DNA from: Nitrospiraceae bacterium
GTDB lineage: Bacteria; Nitrospirota; Nitrospiria; Nitrospirales; Nitrospiraceae
DNA: 49,899 nucleotides
Direction: 5' to 3'
Assembly (NCBI GenBank): GCA_035715525.1
Contig: DASTLA010000004.1
Coordinates: 1-49,899, forward strand
Shown: piece after piece, positions 2,309 to 37,592 of the stretch
Layout of the letters: each line of letters begins with the position of its first letter
Numbering within the stretch: position 1 is the first letter of the stretch
Position numbers and translations under genes: made by a program
The notes under the pieces: generated by a model
Databases searched by the model: none
What the model was told of the DNA's origin: nothing
What the model saw: the letters and a program-made list of their open reading frames with translations, nothing else

Positions 2309-3865
2309 ATGCTGCCCAATTTCAGCCAATTCACGATCAGTCAGCGGTTCATCATTCTCGTCGCACTGGCGGGCTCCGTGGCCGGCCTGATTGCGGTGGC
2401 TCTCTGGACCCAACAGCCGGACATGCAGGTGCTGTTTGCCAACCTGGCGACGGACGACGCGGCCGCCATCATCGACAAGTTGAAGGACGGCAAGGTGCCG
2501 TACGAAACGTCGAACGGCGGTACGACCATTCTGGTTCCCAATGCGCAGGTGCATGATTTGAGGCTCGAACTGGCCGGGCAAGGTCTGCCTCACGGTGGTG
2601 GTGTAGGGTACGAAATTTTCGATCGCTCGACCCTGGGGATGTCGGATTTCGTTCAGAAGCTGAATTACCGACGTGCCTTGCAGGGAGAATTGGCCCGGAC
2701 CATTGCGCAGATGCCGGAAGTCGATCGGGCACGCGTCCATTTGGCGATACCGGAACGCAAATTGTTCGCGACGGAGCAGGACCGGCCTCGTGCCTCCGTC
2801 GTGGTCTCGCTTCGAGCGAGCCAAGCGCTTAGCCGGGCGCAAGTGCAAGGGGTCGTCCACCTGGTGTCCAGCAGCGTGGAGGGACTGATGGCGAAGGACG
2901 TGACGGTGGTCGACGGGCACGGGAATTTGTTGTCCAACGTCGCGAGCGACGACTCGGCCGGTCTGTCGGGGACGCAGCTGGAATACCAGCGCACCCTCGA
3001 AAAAGACATTGAAGCGCGTATCCAGACGATGCTCGAAAAGATCGTCGGCGTCAACAAGGCCGTCGTTCGCGTATCCAGCGTGCTCGATTTCCGCAAAGTG
3101 GAAACGACGGAAGAACGATTTGATCCGAACGGGCAAGTGGTGCGCAGCGAACAGCGGGGGCAGGAAAAAGCGAGCGGCGTGAACGGTATGTCCGGGGGGG
3201 TGCCTGGCGTGGAATCGAACGTGCCGGGCGGCAACGATGCCGAGGCCTCTCAGACCAGCTCCAGCAGCAACCAGACGAAAAACGAAACCGTGAATTACGA
3301 GATCAGCCGCACTGTATCTCGAATCGTCGAACCTATCGGAACGATCAAGAAGCTGTCCGTCGCGGTGTTGGTGGACGGCACCTATGAGGCCGTGAAGGCT
3401 GTGGACGGGTCGGCGGAGTCTCCGAAGAAGTACGTCCCACGCGCAGAAGAAGAAATGAAGAGGATCGAGGATATCGTCAAGAAGGCAATGGGATATTCCT
3501 CGGAACGACAGGATCAGGTGGAAGTAGTGAACGTCCAATTCGGATTCGCATCCGAAGAGCCGGCGGGCGCTGGTGTCGAATCCGCGCCGGATCCGACGAA
3601 GATGTGGATGCCCTATATCCGTTACGCCGTCGGCGGGGTCTTATTCCTGCTGATTTTGTTCATGGTCGTTCGGCCGCTGATGGGCATGCTCGCGGCTTCC
3701 GGCCCGGCGGCCATGCAAGCCGAGACGCCGGCCTTGCCGGCGTCGGTCGGACAAGTCGAGGCGGCCATCGTTGCCAAGCAGCCTGCCCAGGTTTTGGAAA
3801 TGGCCAAGAATAATCCCGCCAACACCGCCGTCGTCGTCAAGCAGTGGTTGAAGGGCAACGCGTGA
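2309..3865 (+). CDS. fliF: flagellar MS-ring protein FliF
   Basis: 518 aa with an N-terminal TM segment, the conserved LNYRRALQGELARTI block and a C-terminal TM segment. Position between fliE and fliG. Confidence 0.92.
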   Translation: MLPNFSQFTISQRFIILVALAGSVAGLIAVALWTQQPDMQVLFANLATDDAAAIIDKLKDGKVPYETSNGGTTILVPNAQVHDLRLELAGQGLPHGGGVGYEIFDRSTLGMSDFVQKLNYRRALQGELARTIAQMPEVDRARVHLAIPERKLFATEQDRPRASVVVSLRASQALSRAQVQGVVHLVSSSVEGLMAKDVTVVDGHGNLLSNVASDDSAGLSGTQLEYQRTLEKDIEARIQTMLEKIVGVNKAVVRVSSVLDFRKVETTEERFDPNGQVVRSEQRGQEKASGVNGMSGGVPGVESNVPGGNDAEASQTSSSSNQTKNETVNYEISRTVSRIVEPIGTIKKLSVAVLVDGTYEAVKAVDGSAESPKKYVPRAEEEMKRIEDIVKKAMGYSSERQDQVEVVNVQFGFASEEPAGAGVESAPDPTKMWMPYIRYAVGGVLFLLILFMVVRPLMGMLAASGPAAMQAETPALPASVGQVEAAIVAKQPAQVLEMAKNNPANTAVVVKQWLKGNA

Positions 3866-21520: not shown

Positions 21521-22276
21521 ATGGACGGACCAAGAGGCAGCTCGACGGGCGCGGCGAAGCGGACCATCCCGGAAGGGGATCGTGAACGGGTCATCCAAGA
21601 ATTCGCCCATGTCGTCAAGGCGATGGCACACCGGTTGGCGTTTCGCCTGCCGGCCTATCTGGACGCCGAAGATCTCGTGTCCGTCGGCATTATCGGCCTG
21701 ATGGATGCGATGAACAAGTATGATCCCAAGCGGGAGGCCAAGTTCAAAACCTACGCGGAGTTCAGAATTCGCGGCGCTATGCTGGACGAAATCAGATCGA
21801 TGGATTGGATTCCCCGCTCGGTTCATGAACGGATCGCCTTGCTGCAGAAGACCTACACGGAACTGCTCAATCGTCTCGGCCGCCCGCCGTCGGATCAGGA
21901 GGTTGCCAAGGAACTGCAGATGTCGATGGAGGAGCTGGACGAGTTTCTCACGCGCTCGCGGGGCGCCGTGGTGATCAGTCTAGACGATCTGGGCGTACAA
22001 GATCCCGACGGCCAAAAGATGCTGAGTGTGCTGACGGATCCCAATCAGCCGGACCCGTTGTCGGTCCTCGTCAACGATCGCGAACGCAAGGTACTGGAGT
22101 CCGCGATACAGGAATTGCCTGAAAAAGAACGAGTGGTGTTGTCGCTGTACTACTTCGAGGAACTCACGATGAAGGAGATCGGGCAGGCACTCAAGGTGAC
22201 TGAGTCACGCGTCTGTCAAATCCATTCGAAAGCCATCCTTCACCTCAAAGCCAGACTCCAACCGGTCGATGCGTGA
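21521..22276 (+). CDS. fliA: flagellar sigma factor FliA (sigma-28)
   Basis: Region 2 (YAEFRIRGAMLDEIR) and region 4 HTH (LTMKEIGQALKVTESRVCQIHSKAI). Confidence 0.92.
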   Translation: MDGPRGSSTGAAKRTIPEGDRERVIQEFAHVVKAMAHRLAFRLPAYLDAEDLVSVGIIGLMDAMNKYDPKREAKFKTYAEFRIRGAMLDEIRSMDWIPRSVHERIALLQKTYTELLNRLGRPPSDQEVAKELQMSMEELDEFLTRSRGAVVISLDDLGVQDPDGQKMLSVLTDPNQPDPLSVLVNDRERKVLESAIQELPEKERVVLSLYYFEELTMKEIGQALKVTESRVCQIHSKAILHLKARLQPVDA

Positions 22277-22370: not shown

Positions 22371-22398
22371 TTTAGTTTTCCTTTTCAGATACCGATAG
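22371..22398 (+). promoter_or_regulatory. candidate sigma-28-type promoter upstream of the degenerate GGDEF gene
   Basis: TTTAGTTT-N12-ACCGATAG compared with the consensus TAAAGTTT-N11-GCCGATAA. It has the same architecture as the flgM site. It lies only 12 nt before ATG 22411, so the CDS start may be further downstream. Confidence 0.4.
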
Positions 22399-22410: not shown

Positions 22411-23379
22411 ATGTCCCAGGGCATTCCTGTGCCCATCTGGATCGATCATTCCGAACGCGCAGGTTTCATGGATAGGATGATCTCACGTACCTCCCGCCGG
22501 TCCCTGTTCACGAATTCCGCTGTCCGATCGGATGCGTCGCATCATCATGCCTGGTCGCCAAAGGACTTTCCAGGGACGTCGTCGATCCTGCCGTTGGGGT
22601 CCGGCCTCATGGGGATGATCGTCTCCTTCATGGTGGTAGCGGGAGGATTGTATTGGATCAACGCAACGGGGTTGTTGACGGCATCGGCGCTGCGATCGGT
22701 TCCGATGGCTCTATGGGGGGCCGCTGTTCTTGCCATAGGAGCACTATCGGGGCTCATCGTCTGGGGAATGCGATCGCCCAGGACCCATCCGATCGGTTGG
22801 TTTGTGGGAGGGCAATCGAAGCTGGCGATCCCAACCACCTACGATTCCGTGACCGGGCTGCCCACCTCGCGCCTGTTCATGTCCATGCTCAATAACGCAC
22901 TCGTCAGGGCCGATAGAGAAGGGCGTCACGTGGCAATCCTCCTGGTAGAGTTGGAGCATTTTACCTTGACGGGCGGATCTCAAGAACCGAGCAACCCCAA
23001 CCTCATCTATAGGGTGCAGGCGGCACGGGTGAAAAGCGCACTGCGAAGCACCGACACGGTGGCGCGGTTGGCCGAGCGAACATTCGTCGTTCTGCTGGAT
23101 AAGATCACCGCCGACGAGGCGGTTGGTATCGCGACCAAAATGCAGGCGACGGTGTCATTGCCCTTTCTCGTAGAAGGACAGGAGGTTTTCCTTACCAGCC
23201 GTATCGGGATCAGCGTCTCTGGCCCGGGAGCAATGGACGGAGCAACCTTGCTCCGGACGGCCGAGGAAGCGGTCGAGAAGGCGAGGGCGGAGGGCTTTGT
23301 CATATACGGACTCAACGTCGACATGGCGAATGATTCATCTCTTACTCCCGTCACAAAGTCCACCCCCCAGGCCGCGTGA
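22411..23379 (+). CDS. membrane protein with a degenerate GGDEF domain (A-site lost, RxxD I-site retained)
   Basis: Hydrophobic N-terminal half with 2-3 TM segments. The GGDEF-fold block begins YDSVTGLPTSRLF. The GG(D/E)EF position reads AERTF and the DxDxFK position reads ELEHFT. RSTD sits exactly 5 residues upstream, as a canonical I-site does. Confidence 0.75.
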   Translation: MSQGIPVPIWIDHSERAGFMDRMISRTSRRSLFTNSAVRSDASHHHAWSPKDFPGTSSILPLGSGLMGMIVSFMVVAGGLYWINATGLLTASALRSVPMALWGAAVLAIGALSGLIVWGMRSPRTHPIGWFVGGQSKLAIPTTYDSVTGLPTSRLFMSMLNNALVRADREGRHVAILLVELEHFTLTGGSQEPSNPNLIYRVQAARVKSALRSTDTVARLAERTFVVLLDKITADEAVGIATKMQATVSLPFLVEGQEVFLTSRIGISVSGPGAMDGATLLRTAEEAVEKARAEGFVIYGLNVDMANDSSLTPVTKSTPQAA

Positions 23380-23625: not shown

Positions 23626-23641
23626 TGGCATATCGATTGCT
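23626..23641 (+). promoter_or_regulatory. sigma-54 promoter for the flgF operon
   Basis: TGGCAT-atcga-TTGCT with GG and GC correctly spaced, 44 nt upstream of flgF ATG 23685. Confidence 0.65.
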
Positions 23642-28513: not shown

Positions 28514-28541
28514 TAAAGTTCCCCGTAGGGTAGACCGATAA
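28514..28541 (+). promoter_or_regulatory. sigma-28 (FliA) promoter for flgM
   Basis: TAAAGTTC-N12-ACCGATAA compared with the consensus TAAAGTTT-N11-GCCGATAA, 60 nt upstream of the flgM ATG. Confidence 0.7.
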
Positions 28542-31728: not shown

Positions 31729-31756
31729 TTAAGTCCTTCCTCCCCGTGACCGATAG
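31729..31756 (+). promoter_or_regulatory. candidate sigma-28-type promoter for csrA-fliW
   Basis: TTAAGTCC-N12-ACCGATAG has the same 8-mer-N12-ACCGATA[AG] layout as the flgM promoter. It lies 39 nt upstream of the csrA ATG. Confidence 0.45.
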
Positions 31757-32580: not shown

Positions 32581-35412
<2,832 letters not shown>

Positions 35413-35418
35413 GATGGA

Positions 35419-36675
35419 TTACTGTCCCGAAGCCGGCTCCAAGTATGCCGCGACGTTCACCTGCTCGGTCTTCGGGTCGAGCGCGCGGAGAATCGTCCGT
35501 GCCGGCTGAGATCCGCACTCCGCCGAGAGATCGAGCCCGATCGACTCACTGAAGATCTGACCTTTCGCGTCGGTGATGATCCGAATCTTTGGCTTGAGGC
35601 GATGTTCATGGTTCAGTCCGGTGACCAAGGCGGATTCTCCCGTATTGAGCTTGATGAGACTCCCGATCGGATAAACGCCCAGCGCTTTGATGGCCACTTC
35701 GACGACGGCTTTATCGAACCGGCCCTTTTCCCCCAGCACGAACAGTTGGCGGATGGCATCGTGGGGCAACAGCGCTGGCTTGCCGTTCCGCGACGTCACC
35801 ATGCCGTCGTAGGTGTCGACCAGTCCGACGATCTGTACGAGCGGAGACAAGCTCGCGCCGGTGAGCTTGTTGGGGTACCCGCTGCCGTTGAAATGCTCAT
35901 GATGCTCCGCAATGATGTGCCGGACGAGTTCCGGCACGTCCGCCGACTCGGCCATGACCGTCAGTCCAAGTTGGGGATGTTGCTGCATCAGGGCCTTTTC
36001 CTGTGGCAGCAAGATCCCCGATTTGCGGTACAGGTTTCGCGGCAGGCGGGTGTAGCCGATATCATGAAGCATCGCCCCCATTCCCAAGAACTCGCGGTCG
36101 GATTCTTGCAGCCCCTGTTCGTTCGCAACGATCAGCGACAAGACGCACACGTCGATGCCGTGGCTCGCTAGGCTCCGGTCGAACCGTCGCATCTTCTGCA
36201 GGCAAAACTGCATCAACATCGATTCCTGGTGCAGCAGGATTTGGTCCACCACGCGTGCAACCACAGAGCGAACCGACACGAGATTAGGAGCATGGCCGGC
36301 GTCCAGGTCGGCGAAGATGCGTTCCATGGCGGCCGTGGCTTCCCGGTAGGTTGTTCGCGCTTCCGCCATGATCTTCTGGGCGTCAGGCGAAGTCGCAGTC
36401 GGCTCGTCCGTAGAACCGGCTTCGGAAGATCCGGCTGGTTCCTCCGTCGGCCGCGCATCGTCCCCAGCGGCGGCCGCTGCCGGTATGTCGATTCCTTGGT
36501 CGGTATCGATTGTGACTTCTTGGATACCGGCCCCACGCATTTGGAGAACATCGTCCTGGTCCGCGATGAGGCGTTTGTGGAACAAGAAGGGGGTCCGGTA
36601 CCACGGCTGATCCATTGCCACGACGAACATGCCGGGCTTGAGCTCGTCAATGGAGATGCGCTTTGTGCTGGCCAT
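35419..36675 (-). CDS. HD-GYP domain c-di-GMP phosphodiesterase with an N-terminal DUF3391-like domain
   Basis: MLHDIGY (HD) and HHEHFNGSGYP (GYP). The N-terminus reads MASTKRISIDELKPGMFVV. The track start at 36801 is probably an over-extension. Confidence 0.88.
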   Translation of the reverse strand: MASTKRISIDELKPGMFVVAMDQPWYRTPFLFHKRLIADQDDVLQMRGAGIQEVTIDTDQGIDIPAAAAAGDDARPTEEPAGSSEAGSTDEPTATSPDAQKIMAEARTTYREATAAMERIFADLDAGHAPNLVSVRSVVARVVDQILLHQESMLMQFCLQKMRRFDRSLASHGIDVCVLSLIVANEQGLQESDREFLGMGAMLHDIGYTRLPRNLYRKSGILLPQEKALMQQHPQLGLTVMAESADVPELVRHIIAEHHEHFNGSGYPNKLTGASLSPLVQIVGLVDTYDGMVTSRNGKPALLPHDAIRQLFVLGEKGRFDKAVVEVAIKALGVYPIGSLIKLNTGESALVTGLNHEHRLKPKIRIITDAKGQIFSESIGLDLSAECGSQPARTILRALDPKTEQVNVAAYLEPASGQ

Positions 36676-36797
36676 AATTCCTGTGTAGGCGAAAGGTAAG
36701 CAGCGAACCTCCAGGAGTTGCACCATACAGGTCCGCATACTTGATATCGGTTGCTGGCAGATTTGGCTTGAATCCGCACCGTTGAAGGGGGGCAGGC

Positions 36798-36825
36798 TCA
36801 AGGTTTTGTCGATGGGCTCCGATAG
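36798..36825 (+). promoter_or_regulatory. candidate sigma-28-type promoter for the PilZ (YcgR-like) gene
   Basis: TCAAGGTT-N12-TCCGATAG. The -35 box matches 6 of 8 positions, the -10 core is CCGATA, and the spacing equals that of the flgM promoter. Confidence 0.4.
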
Positions 36826-36872
36826 CGTTCATCAGGACACGTTCGTGCACATTGTTGCCGGACCGAGGAGTG

Positions 36873-37592
36873 ATGGGGGAATCGAGTCTTCCATGCCAGT
36901 CTGCCGGCTCGTTTCTGAGTGTCGGGCTGTCGCTGCAAATCAACTTTCAACCGAGTGATTCGCGAATCCAGCACGGTTCGTCGTTGTTGGGATGGCGGGA
37001 AGGAAGCTGGTTGGTCTGCGAGTGGCCGTTCCAATTGGGTCAGCCGGTGGAATGCAGTCCGGGATCGACCTGCCTGATCCGGTACGTGCATCAAGGAAAA
37101 ATGATCGGGTTCCGCAGTGCGGTCATTTCAGCCCATGAGTCTCCATTTCCGTTTCTTCTGCTGAGCTACCCAGCCCAGAGAGAGGAAATGCCGCTCCGCC
37201 GCCATTCGCGTGTTGCCATCAACGAACCAGTCTTGGTCAGAACGATCAGCGGTGCCAATACACGGCGTCCGGAACTGCCGGATCGCATCGGCGGACTCTT
37301 GCGCGATCTCAGCGCGGAGGGTTGTTGCTTATCAGTACAACGGCCGTTACAGGATTTTTTCCCTGGGATGCTCGTTCGGCTGGAATTTGAGGTGATGGGG
37401 GTCGGTCACATCAGCAGTCTAGGGGGTATCGTCCGTAACATCTCGCCGGCGGGGGCAGGCACGGAAGTAGGACTGGAGTTCCGCTTCGACGGAAAGGAAG
37501 CCATCGAATACCGGGGGTGGGGTGCATCGGTACAAAAAGCCCTCGAACAATGGACCAGCCGAGCTCTCGACTCCCCTCCGCAAGAACGATGA
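36873..37592 (+). CDS. PilZ-domain c-di-GMP receptor, YcgR-like (putative flagellar brake)
   Basis: RxxxR (LRRHSRV) and DxSxxG (DLSAEG) c-di-GMP binding motifs in the C-terminal half. An N-terminal beta-rich domain of about 100 aa resembles YcgR. The start is uncertain: TTG 36852 or ATG 36873. Confidence 0.8.
   Translation: MGESSLPCQSAGSFLSVGLSLQINFQPSDSRIQHGSSLLGWREGSWLVCEWPFQLGQPVECSPGSTCLIRYVHQGKMIGFRSAVISAHESPFPFLLLSYPAQREEMPLRRHSRVAINEPVLVRTISGANTRRPELPDRIGGLLRDLSAEGCCLSVQRPLQDFFPGMLVRLEFEVMGVGHISSLGGIVRNISPAGAGTEVGLEFRFDGKEAIEYRGWGASVQKALEQWTSRALDSPPQER

Follow-up and report, generated by a model that had tools for sequence, protein, structure and literature searches.

A flagellar gene cluster with an additional gene after fliA

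The window analyzed here is a stretch of 49,899 nucleotides (nt) from a Nitrospiraceae bacterium (contig DASTLA010000004.1 of assembly GCA_035715525.1, positions 1 to 49,899), and it carries a flagellar gene cluster in the order flhA, flhF, flhG, fliA, the gene under study, flgF, flgG, flgA, flgH and flgI. The gene under study encodes a membrane protein with a degenerate GGDEF domain, for which we consider a role as an inactive receptor of cyclic diguanosine monophosphate (c-di-GMP). An earlier reading of this DNA, made from its letters alone (the sequence-only reading), had placed an open reading frame (ORF) at 22411-23379 of the plus strand, directly after fliA. The ORF is present there and encodes 322 amino acids in its longest form, or 303 from the probable real start (ATG 22468), and the gene immediately upstream (21521-22276, plus strand) was confirmed as fliA, the gene for sigma-28, by a TIGR02479 (FliA/WhiG) match of 260.5 bits against a cut-off of 189.6 and by matches to Sigma70 regions 2, 3 and 4. 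All features of the gene given below lie on the plus strand, with residues numbered from the longest ORF. The possibility of a pseudogene or spurious ORF was ruled out by about 188 intact orthologues that carry a domain recognizable at the level of Pfam.

A GGDEF fold with a degenerate active site

A profile scan matched Pfam PF00990 to residues 143-295 (22837-23295) with an E value of 9.9e-20 and 71.4 bits against a cut-off of 23.8, covering profile positions 2-158 of 161. This was the only domain found in the scan, which returned neither a GAF nor a PilZ match for the protein. AlphaFold, run with 29 family members, gave this domain a predicted local distance difference test score (pLDDT) of mostly 81-96, and a Foldseek search with the model gave MorA, the T. 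maritima GGDEF domain, PA0575 and PleD as top matches (E values of 1e-11 to 7e-14), followed by WspR and others, all at a probability of 1.00.

The register of the motifs was taken from residue-level phmmer alignments to solved GGDEF domains, namely PA0575 (5m3c), 3icl and MorA (4rnf). In these alignments AERTF (residues 221-225; 23071-23085) replaces the GG(D/E)EF motif of the active site (A-site), and ELEHFT (residues 180-185; 22948-22965), aligned on DLDRFK, replaces the DxDxFK motif that binds metal and phosphate; ELEHFR, ELDHFT and EMDHFT occur at the latter place in other family members. The guanine-binding stretch is also gone, with ‘ltGGsqEPsnPN’ aligned to ‘hiNDslGHpiGD’, so that N-D...G-H..G-D has become G-G...E-P..P-N. 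By alignment, the positions of PleD D327, K332, N335, D344, E370 and E371 are occupied by E180, T185, G188, N197, R223 and T224; the PleD numbering is the one we take to be correct, and it is consistent with the offsets in the phmmer alignments. The PF00990 match and these alignments thus bear out what the sequence-only reading had proposed for the domain, namely that its A-site and metal-binding motif are both degenerate.

Conservation was assessed in a family set of 188 non-identical sequences, assembled from 120 database proteins and the translations from 80 genome loci. GG[DE]EF was found in none of the 188, and the letters at the A-site differed by clade (AERTF, GERSF, GDRSF, AEARF, AQDQF, RQDQF, TPDQF and DEYTF), the commonest residue reaching only 44-59% at motif positions 1-4. 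Because the GG(D/E)EF, metal-binding and guanine-binding residues have been lost, the domain is predicted to make no c-di-GMP, and the protein, judged by these motifs, cannot be a normal diguanylate cyclase. An active cyclase was accordingly rejected on the A-site and metal-site motifs.

Residues of the inhibitory site

The sequence-only reading had also noted an RxxD motif, the inhibitory site (I-site) of GGDEF domains, five residues upstream of the dead A-site. RSTD (residues 212-215; 23044-23055) aligned on RDVD of 5m3c, and exactly five residues, TVARL, separate D215 from A221; the same TVARL spacer is found in 5m3c (RDVD-TVARL-GGDEF), and the I-site register was therefore upheld by the phmmer alignments. 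Two more residues are presumed to belong to the same pocket. K243 (23137-23139), which lies 18 residues past the Phe of the A-site motif and is Lys in 96% of the family, holds what we take, from the spacing and from the PleD sequence as we know it, to be the position of PleD R390 and PelD R402, the third I-site residue. On the same grounds R166 (22906-22908), which is Arg in 89% of the family, presumably corresponds to PleD R313, a residue of the secondary I-site that cross-links two GGDEF domains. The PleD numbering assumed here reproduces published landmark residues and agrees with the alignment offsets, and both correspondences are matches of spacing.

Across the 188 orthologues, the I-site Arg was retained in 85%, and its acidic partner was Asp in 81% and Glu in 18% (Asp or Glu in 99%), which gave RxxD in 70% and RxxE in 15%. 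The loop R[ST]T[DE], K243 and R166 were all far better kept than the letters of the A-site, and the clade to which the window protein belongs was consistently RxxD.

A predicted membrane hairpin and a disordered linker

The protein had been described as a membrane protein, and both hydropathy and the AlphaFold model agree with this in giving two transmembrane helices ahead of the GGDEF domain, at residues 64-85 (22600-22665) and 94-120 (22690-22770). Hydropathy over a 19-residue Kyte-Doolittle window rose above 1.4 in two hydrophobic segments, with peaks near residues 66-80 and 100-113. The hydrophobic cores are separated by about 12 residues and the modeled helices by 8, with basic residues on the N-terminal side and on the linker side, and this arrangement fits a predicted hairpin with both ends in the cytoplasm. 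The hairpin sequence AGGLYW...GLLT.SAL, of which the family-conserved AGGLYW belongs to helix 1, was the best-conserved part outside the GGDEF domain. The segment that follows (residues 121-142; 22771-22836) is rich in Pro, Gly and Ser, is variable in the family, and was predicted to be disordered (pLDDT < 50); in the model it looks like a tether and not like a signaling helix.

A clade with GERSF or GDRSF at the A-site (e.g. P0048, P0053, P0056 and P0059) has another N-terminus, in which a conserved W-C-G-I-D-R-Y and a single hydrophobic segment stand in place of the AGGLYW hairpin.

A conserved sigma-28-type promoter

A sigma-28-like motif had been noted ahead of the gene at 22371-22398 (plus strand). 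The motif is present and is conserved across species: it consists of a -35-like element, TTTAGTTT (22371-22378), a 13-nt spacer and a -10 element, CCGATA (22392-22397), and TTTAGTTT-N13-CCGATA is similar to the FliA consensus of enterobacteria, TAAAGTTT-N11-GCCGATAA, and has a spacer that is, by our count, one base longer. Among 42 aligned orthologous intergenic regions, which were those with an exact CCGATA, 40 carried the block CTT[TC]AGTT[TC]-N13-CCGATA, and its flanks were not conserved. A second clade had the variant TCAAGTC-N13-ACCGAAA at the matching position, and the motif was conserved, in two sequence variants, in most of the approximately 80 Nitrospira loci.

The pattern AGTT[TC]-N13-CCGATA occurred seven times in the 3.07-Mb genome (81% complete), versus one to four times in shuffled sequences. 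Apart from the copy before the gene under study, the seven included copies before flgM (28514-28541), before a FIST-domain gene on contig C217, and before a gene on contig C34 (around 3004-3035) that encodes a helix-turn-helix protein of 76 amino acids and heads cheR-cheY-cheZ-cheA. Slightly variant motifs with identical spacing were found before csrA-fliW (31729-31756) and before a YcgR-like gene (36798-36825). The motifs before flgM, the che unit, csrA-fliW and the YcgR-like gene share the layout 8-mer, N12-13, CCGATA. These positions suggest that flgM, csrA-fliW, the YcgR-like gene and the che unit, together with the gene under study, outline the FliA regulon of Nitrospira. The C217 motif, CTTTAGTTC-N13-CCGATA (around 2766), lies just 5’ of the gene for a FIST_N/FIST_C sensor-domain protein (L094, 2721-3851), which may be a further member of the regulon or a chance match. 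A stricter pattern, [CT]AGTT[TC]-N11-14-CCGATA, gave eight matches in the genome, of which just the one ahead of the gene under study preceded a motility gene; this pattern skips flgM, which has an A before AGTT, and the fixed-spacer pattern was used in its place.

The position of the promoter also bears on the start codon. ATG 22411, at only 13 nt past the -10 element, lacks a ribosome-binding site, and the orthologues mostly start 47-51 nt past their own -10 elements. In the closest species, candidate ATG codons lie at +53 and +74, and gene callers picked the one at +74 (MDSK...). Its counterpart in the window is ATG 22468 (M20) at +70, from which the protein would begin MDRM.... Because both the N-termini of homologues and the promoter-to-start distances of orthologues fit ATG 22468, this codon is more likely than 22411 to be the real start; the remaining analysis is independent of the choice.

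Downstream, the flgF operon has a sigma-54 promoter of its own, TGGCAT-N5-TTGC (23626-23640, plus strand), which was kept in 68 of the 70 orthologous loci. Its location implies that flgF is likely to start at ATG 23685 and not at the ORF start, 23577. Since flgF has this separate conserved promoter, the gene under study is probably a monocistronic transcription unit of the sigma-28 class, with the fliA operon on one side and the rod operon, driven by sigma-54, on the other. The idea that the ORF is a fragment of a GGDEF-EAL gene was ruled out, as it stops ahead of the sigma-54 promoter.

Occurrence of the gene in Nitrospira and related genera

The organism of the window is a Nitrospira. Homologues in the database were labeled Nitrospira, Nitrospiraceae or Nitrospirota, and the 80 related genome loci came nearly all from Nitrospira or close kin, including the chromosome of Candidatus Nitrospira defluvii. 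When FlhF, FlhG, FliA, FlgF and FlgG of the window were compared with these 80 loci by local tblastn, the order flhF-flhG-fliA-GGDEF-flgF-flgG was found in practically every locus of sufficient length. The exceptions were extra DNA of approximately 1.5-3 kb on the fliA side of the GGDEF gene (L044, L046, L064 and L065) and of approximately 6 kb on its flgF side (L051, L076, L080 and L085). Identity to the window was 35-63% for the GGDEF protein versus 67-91% for FliA and mostly 87-96% for FlgG; by this measure, the GGDEF protein evolves much faster than its neighbors.

Among 31 related genomes, clear orthologues (E < 1e-30; ORFs of 269-345 codons) were found in five of the nine that bear FlgG and in none of the 22 without it, the nine including one unpublished genome, G007, that was used for the count alone. 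The gene is thus inherited along with the flagellar cluster. Other genes occupied the fliA-flgF stretch in some relatives. In G016 the space from fliA to flgF contains a REC-HD-GYP gene on the opposite strand (L095, 328-1485, plus strand), and G014 has a GGDEF-REC-HD-GYP gene ahead of flgF, also on the opposite strand (L097, 181-2079, minus strand), on a stretch of sequence that does not include fliA; in G004 (L096) the gap upstream of flgF is empty. Because HD-GYP genes were found there in G016 and G014, this part of the cluster tends to attract c-di-GMP genes.

One contig of 2839 bp (L019; JBPOIJ010000150.1), labeled as part of a metagenome-assembled genome of Myxococcota, carries fliA-GGDEF-flgF with a FliA 84% identical to that of the window, and a single base separates its promoter stretch from that of L021, the N. 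defluvii locus. The contig probably comes from Nitrospira and was mis-binned.

c-di-GMP genes in the same genome

Farther 3’ in the window, the cluster continues with a gene for a rod-binding (FlgJ-like) protein, flgM, flgK, flgL and the genes for a hybrid histidine kinase, an HD-GYP-type protein and a YcgR-like PilZ protein. The YcgR-like gene (36852-37592) encodes PilZNR and PilZ domains, and the HD-GYP-type gene (DUF3391 and HD_5) lies divergent from it on the minus strand, together with the hybrid kinase gene (PAS-HisKA-HATPase-REC-REC-Hpt), all within 32581-37592. The flagellar cluster thus holds three c-di-GMP-related genes. Elsewhere in the genome, at least three canonical GGDEF domains were found (RLGGDEF, RYGGEEF and RYGGDEF). 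With canonical GGDEF/GGEEF domains, an HD-GYP-type protein and a PilZ protein of the YcgR type encoded, the genome has a working c-di-GMP system that a receptor could sense.

A proposed c-di-GMP receptor and its alternatives

We propose that the gene product is an inactive, membrane-tethered c-di-GMP receptor that acts on the flagellum, a reading to which we assign a probability of about 0.5. Under this proposal, the gene would be a Nitrospira-specific late gene, transcribed by FliA after completion of the basal body and hook and export of FlgM, and the product would be made together with those of flgM and the che genes and with the YcgR-like protein. The two-helix hairpin would hold the protein in the inner membrane and a flexible linker of approximately 20 residues would join it to the GGDEF-fold domain, whose allosteric product pocket (R212, D215, K243 and R166) would bind c-di-GMP as (c-di-GMP)2. 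With R166 as the equivalent of PleD R313, two tethered domains might be bridged by the ligand. The hairpin may dock on a membrane part of the flagellum, from which a signal could pass to the stator, the export gate or the polar-placement machinery, and c-di-GMP would then reach motility by two routes, through the YcgR-like protein of the same cluster and through this protein, which has no PilZ domain. A more ambitious form of the proposal is that such proteins make up a new class of non-PilZ flagellar c-di-GMP effectors, namely sigma-28-timed, membrane-tethered I-site receptors, in which the hairpin docks on the stator, FliL, the export gate or FlhF/FlhG and bridging of two GGDEF domains by c-di-GMP alters the function or assembly of the motor in parallel to a YcgR-like brake; this we consider doubtful, and we offer it tentatively.

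Several observations weigh against the receptor proposal. A strict RxxD was present in only about 70% of the orthologues, and the third I-site position holds Lys where PleD has Arg. R212 ranked below more than 25 other domain positions in conservation (e.g. R154, R201, R206, K208, R219, Q245, E258 and R264), and parsimony mapping on a maximum-likelihood tree gave approximately 17 replacements of the I-site Arg. Many of these were singletons in metagenome bins, and others formed a QxxD clade of approximately nine species and small KxxD and HxxE groups. Because the Arg has been replaced so often, and in whole clades, the core function of the family may do without the I-site. The gene was absent from the fliA-flgF slot in all three flagellated Nitrospiraceae genera that we inspected (those of G004, G016 and G014 above), and the family is therefore neither universal among flagellated Nitrospiraceae nor a general requirement for a working flagellum. 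Searches on both sides of the gene for an intrinsic terminator, by scanning and by 3’ folding, found none above chance level. Finally, the flagellar target has been guessed from where the gene lies and when it would be expressed. The sequence-only reading had suggested a late-flagellar, membrane-anchored c-di-GMP effector with an intact I-site. Its membrane anchor and its sigma-28-type promoter, which is conserved and common to flgM and che, stood, as did the canonical register of the I-site in this protein, but across the family the I-site is less constrained than that reading implied. Since the constraint on the I-site is only moderate family-wide, receptor function is best regarded as our best guess for the window protein and not as a demonstrated property of the family.

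The same repeated loss of the RxxD Arg, in whole small clades that still have the gene, in the same place and behind its promoter, can be explained if the protein is blind to nucleotides and the dead GGDEF fold is a membrane-tethered interaction module that recruits or holds a flagellar or polar partner, with the RxxD loop kept for structure or as an interface. In agreement with this, the entire ALR[ST]TDxVARL is conserved, including ‘x’ residues that make no contact to c-di-GMP, and GGDEF domains are known as interaction modules, an example being PdeB-HubP of Shewanella, as reported in a preprint (10.1101/2021.08.12.456111). Against an adaptor of this kind, R166, R212, D215 and K243 are retained together, here and in the majority of family members, whereas the A-site drifts freely; we judge this main rival possible but on the whole unlikely. 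The conservation of R166 could also point to a decoy, which would be made alongside the other late flagellar proteins, pair with the GGDEF domains of active cyclases, perhaps through c-di-GMP bridging the I-sites, lock these cyclases in an inactive state and so keep local c-di-GMP low during swimming. Cyclases work only as GGDEF dimers, several active-looking cyclases are encoded in the genome, and in PleD cross-linking of I-sites through R313 immobilizes the domains. Heterodimers find no support in our results, though, and the conserved transmembrane hairpin points to a partner in the membrane more than to cyclases in solution, which makes a decoy improbable.

Two further possibilities would retain some use of the degenerate A-site. 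Sensing of guanosine triphosphate (GTP) or another nucleotide, as in some GGDEF-EAL phosphodiesterases, is suggested by the closest sequence relatives, which are the GGDEF domains of the GGDEF-EAL proteins DibA, PA0575 and MorA, and by N195 and N197, which are fairly conserved at the usual place of GHxxGD. Against it, T, G, N and F/Y stand where PleD has its guanine- and phosphate-binding residues K332, N335, D344 and R446, and the protein has no EAL partner, its ORF ending ahead of the sigma-54 promoter in 68 of 70 loci; we consider a GTP sensor very improbable. Weak but real cyclase activity from an unorthodox active site is the least credible of all and comes close to dismissal: some variant A-sites still work, an AGDEF variant being reported as functional in V. 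cholerae VCA0965 (PMC3974145), but the motif of this protein departs from GG(D/E)EF at four of its five residues, both catalytic acids among them, the positions of PleD N335 and D344 differ as well, and the motif drifts between clades.

Significance and comparison with known systems

In soils, waters and wastewater plants, members of the genus Nitrospira are the main nitrite oxidizers and include complete ammonia oxidizers; there they grow for the most part in flocs and biofilms. To our knowledge, the switch between swimming and settling in Nitrospira is essentially unstudied. The gene described here, the YcgR-like protein and the HD-GYP enzyme offer a concrete, testable wiring of c-di-GMP to the Nitrospira flagellum. 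No paper on the gene turned up in literature searches, and database annotation of the family reads just ‘GGDEF domain-containing protein’ or ‘diguanylate cyclase’. A degenerate GGDEF protein that acts as a receptor through a retained I-site is of a kind already well known, and the receptor hypothesis would hardly surprise a c-di-GMP specialist; what is new is the family itself, its minimal architecture and, within the flagellar regulon of Nitrospira, its constant position and promoter. If the proposal is true, the combination of a transmembrane hairpin with a dead GGDEF domain, and its setting in a flagellar regulon, would join a short list of I-site receptors, and the natural QxxD, KxxD and HxxE variants provide a ready series for asking what the I-site contributes.

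Membrane-anchored receptors with a degenerate GGDEF domain and an RxxD motif are known from Pseudomonas aeruginosa (PelD) and Bacillus subtilis (YdaK), and in both the I-site is credited with the receptor role; PopA, SgmT, CdgA and PssE are further I-site receptors whose A-site is dead or odd. The Nitrospira protein shares with PelD and YdaK an inner-membrane anchor and a dead GGDEF domain that retains RxxD. PelD, however, has four transmembrane helices and a GAF domain, is encoded in the pel operon and serves Pel polysaccharide, whereas the Nitrospira protein has a two-helix hairpin, a disordered linker and no GAF domain, in a flagellar context, and so shows none of these features of the PelD family. 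YdaK, which is named a c-di-GMP receptor in two papers (PMC9800504, PMC5422440), likewise differs in having four transmembrane helices and in belonging to an exopolysaccharide operon, in contrast to a gene of the flagellar regulon.

Closer in its link to motility is CbrR of Campylobacter jejuni, which has a non-canonical A-site, lost c-di-GMP binding when its I-site was replaced, and regulates flagellar motility (PMC8779298). It resembles the Nitrospira protein as a GGDEF protein with a non-canonical A-site, a retained I-site and a connection to flagellar motility, which in Nitrospira is suggested by gene context. CbrR is nevertheless a soluble response regulator (REC-REC-GGDEF) with a KGRD/SAEKI pair and possible residual cyclase activity, and it has no membrane anchor and is not encoded after fliA. 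PopA and CmrA, which act at the Caulobacter pole, are also degenerate GGDEF effectors of c-di-GMP, and in Caulobacter crescentus mutation of the I-site position abolished the function of CmrA, a degenerate GGDEF/EAL protein tied to flagellar motor behavior (preprint 10.64898/2026.08.21.746235). Both differ from the Nitrospira protein in being soluble, PopA with two receiver domains and CmrA with tandem GGDEF/EAL domains, and neither is encoded by a sigma-28-regulon gene in a flagellar cluster. With the PilZ brakes YcgR, FlgZ and MotI, the Nitrospira protein would share the proposed principle of a late-flagellar c-di-GMP receptor that acts on the motor, but those proteins are soluble, have a PilZ fold unrelated to GGDEF and bind through RxxxR/DxSxxG, whereas the Nitrospira protein would use the I-site of a membrane-tethered GGDEF fold.

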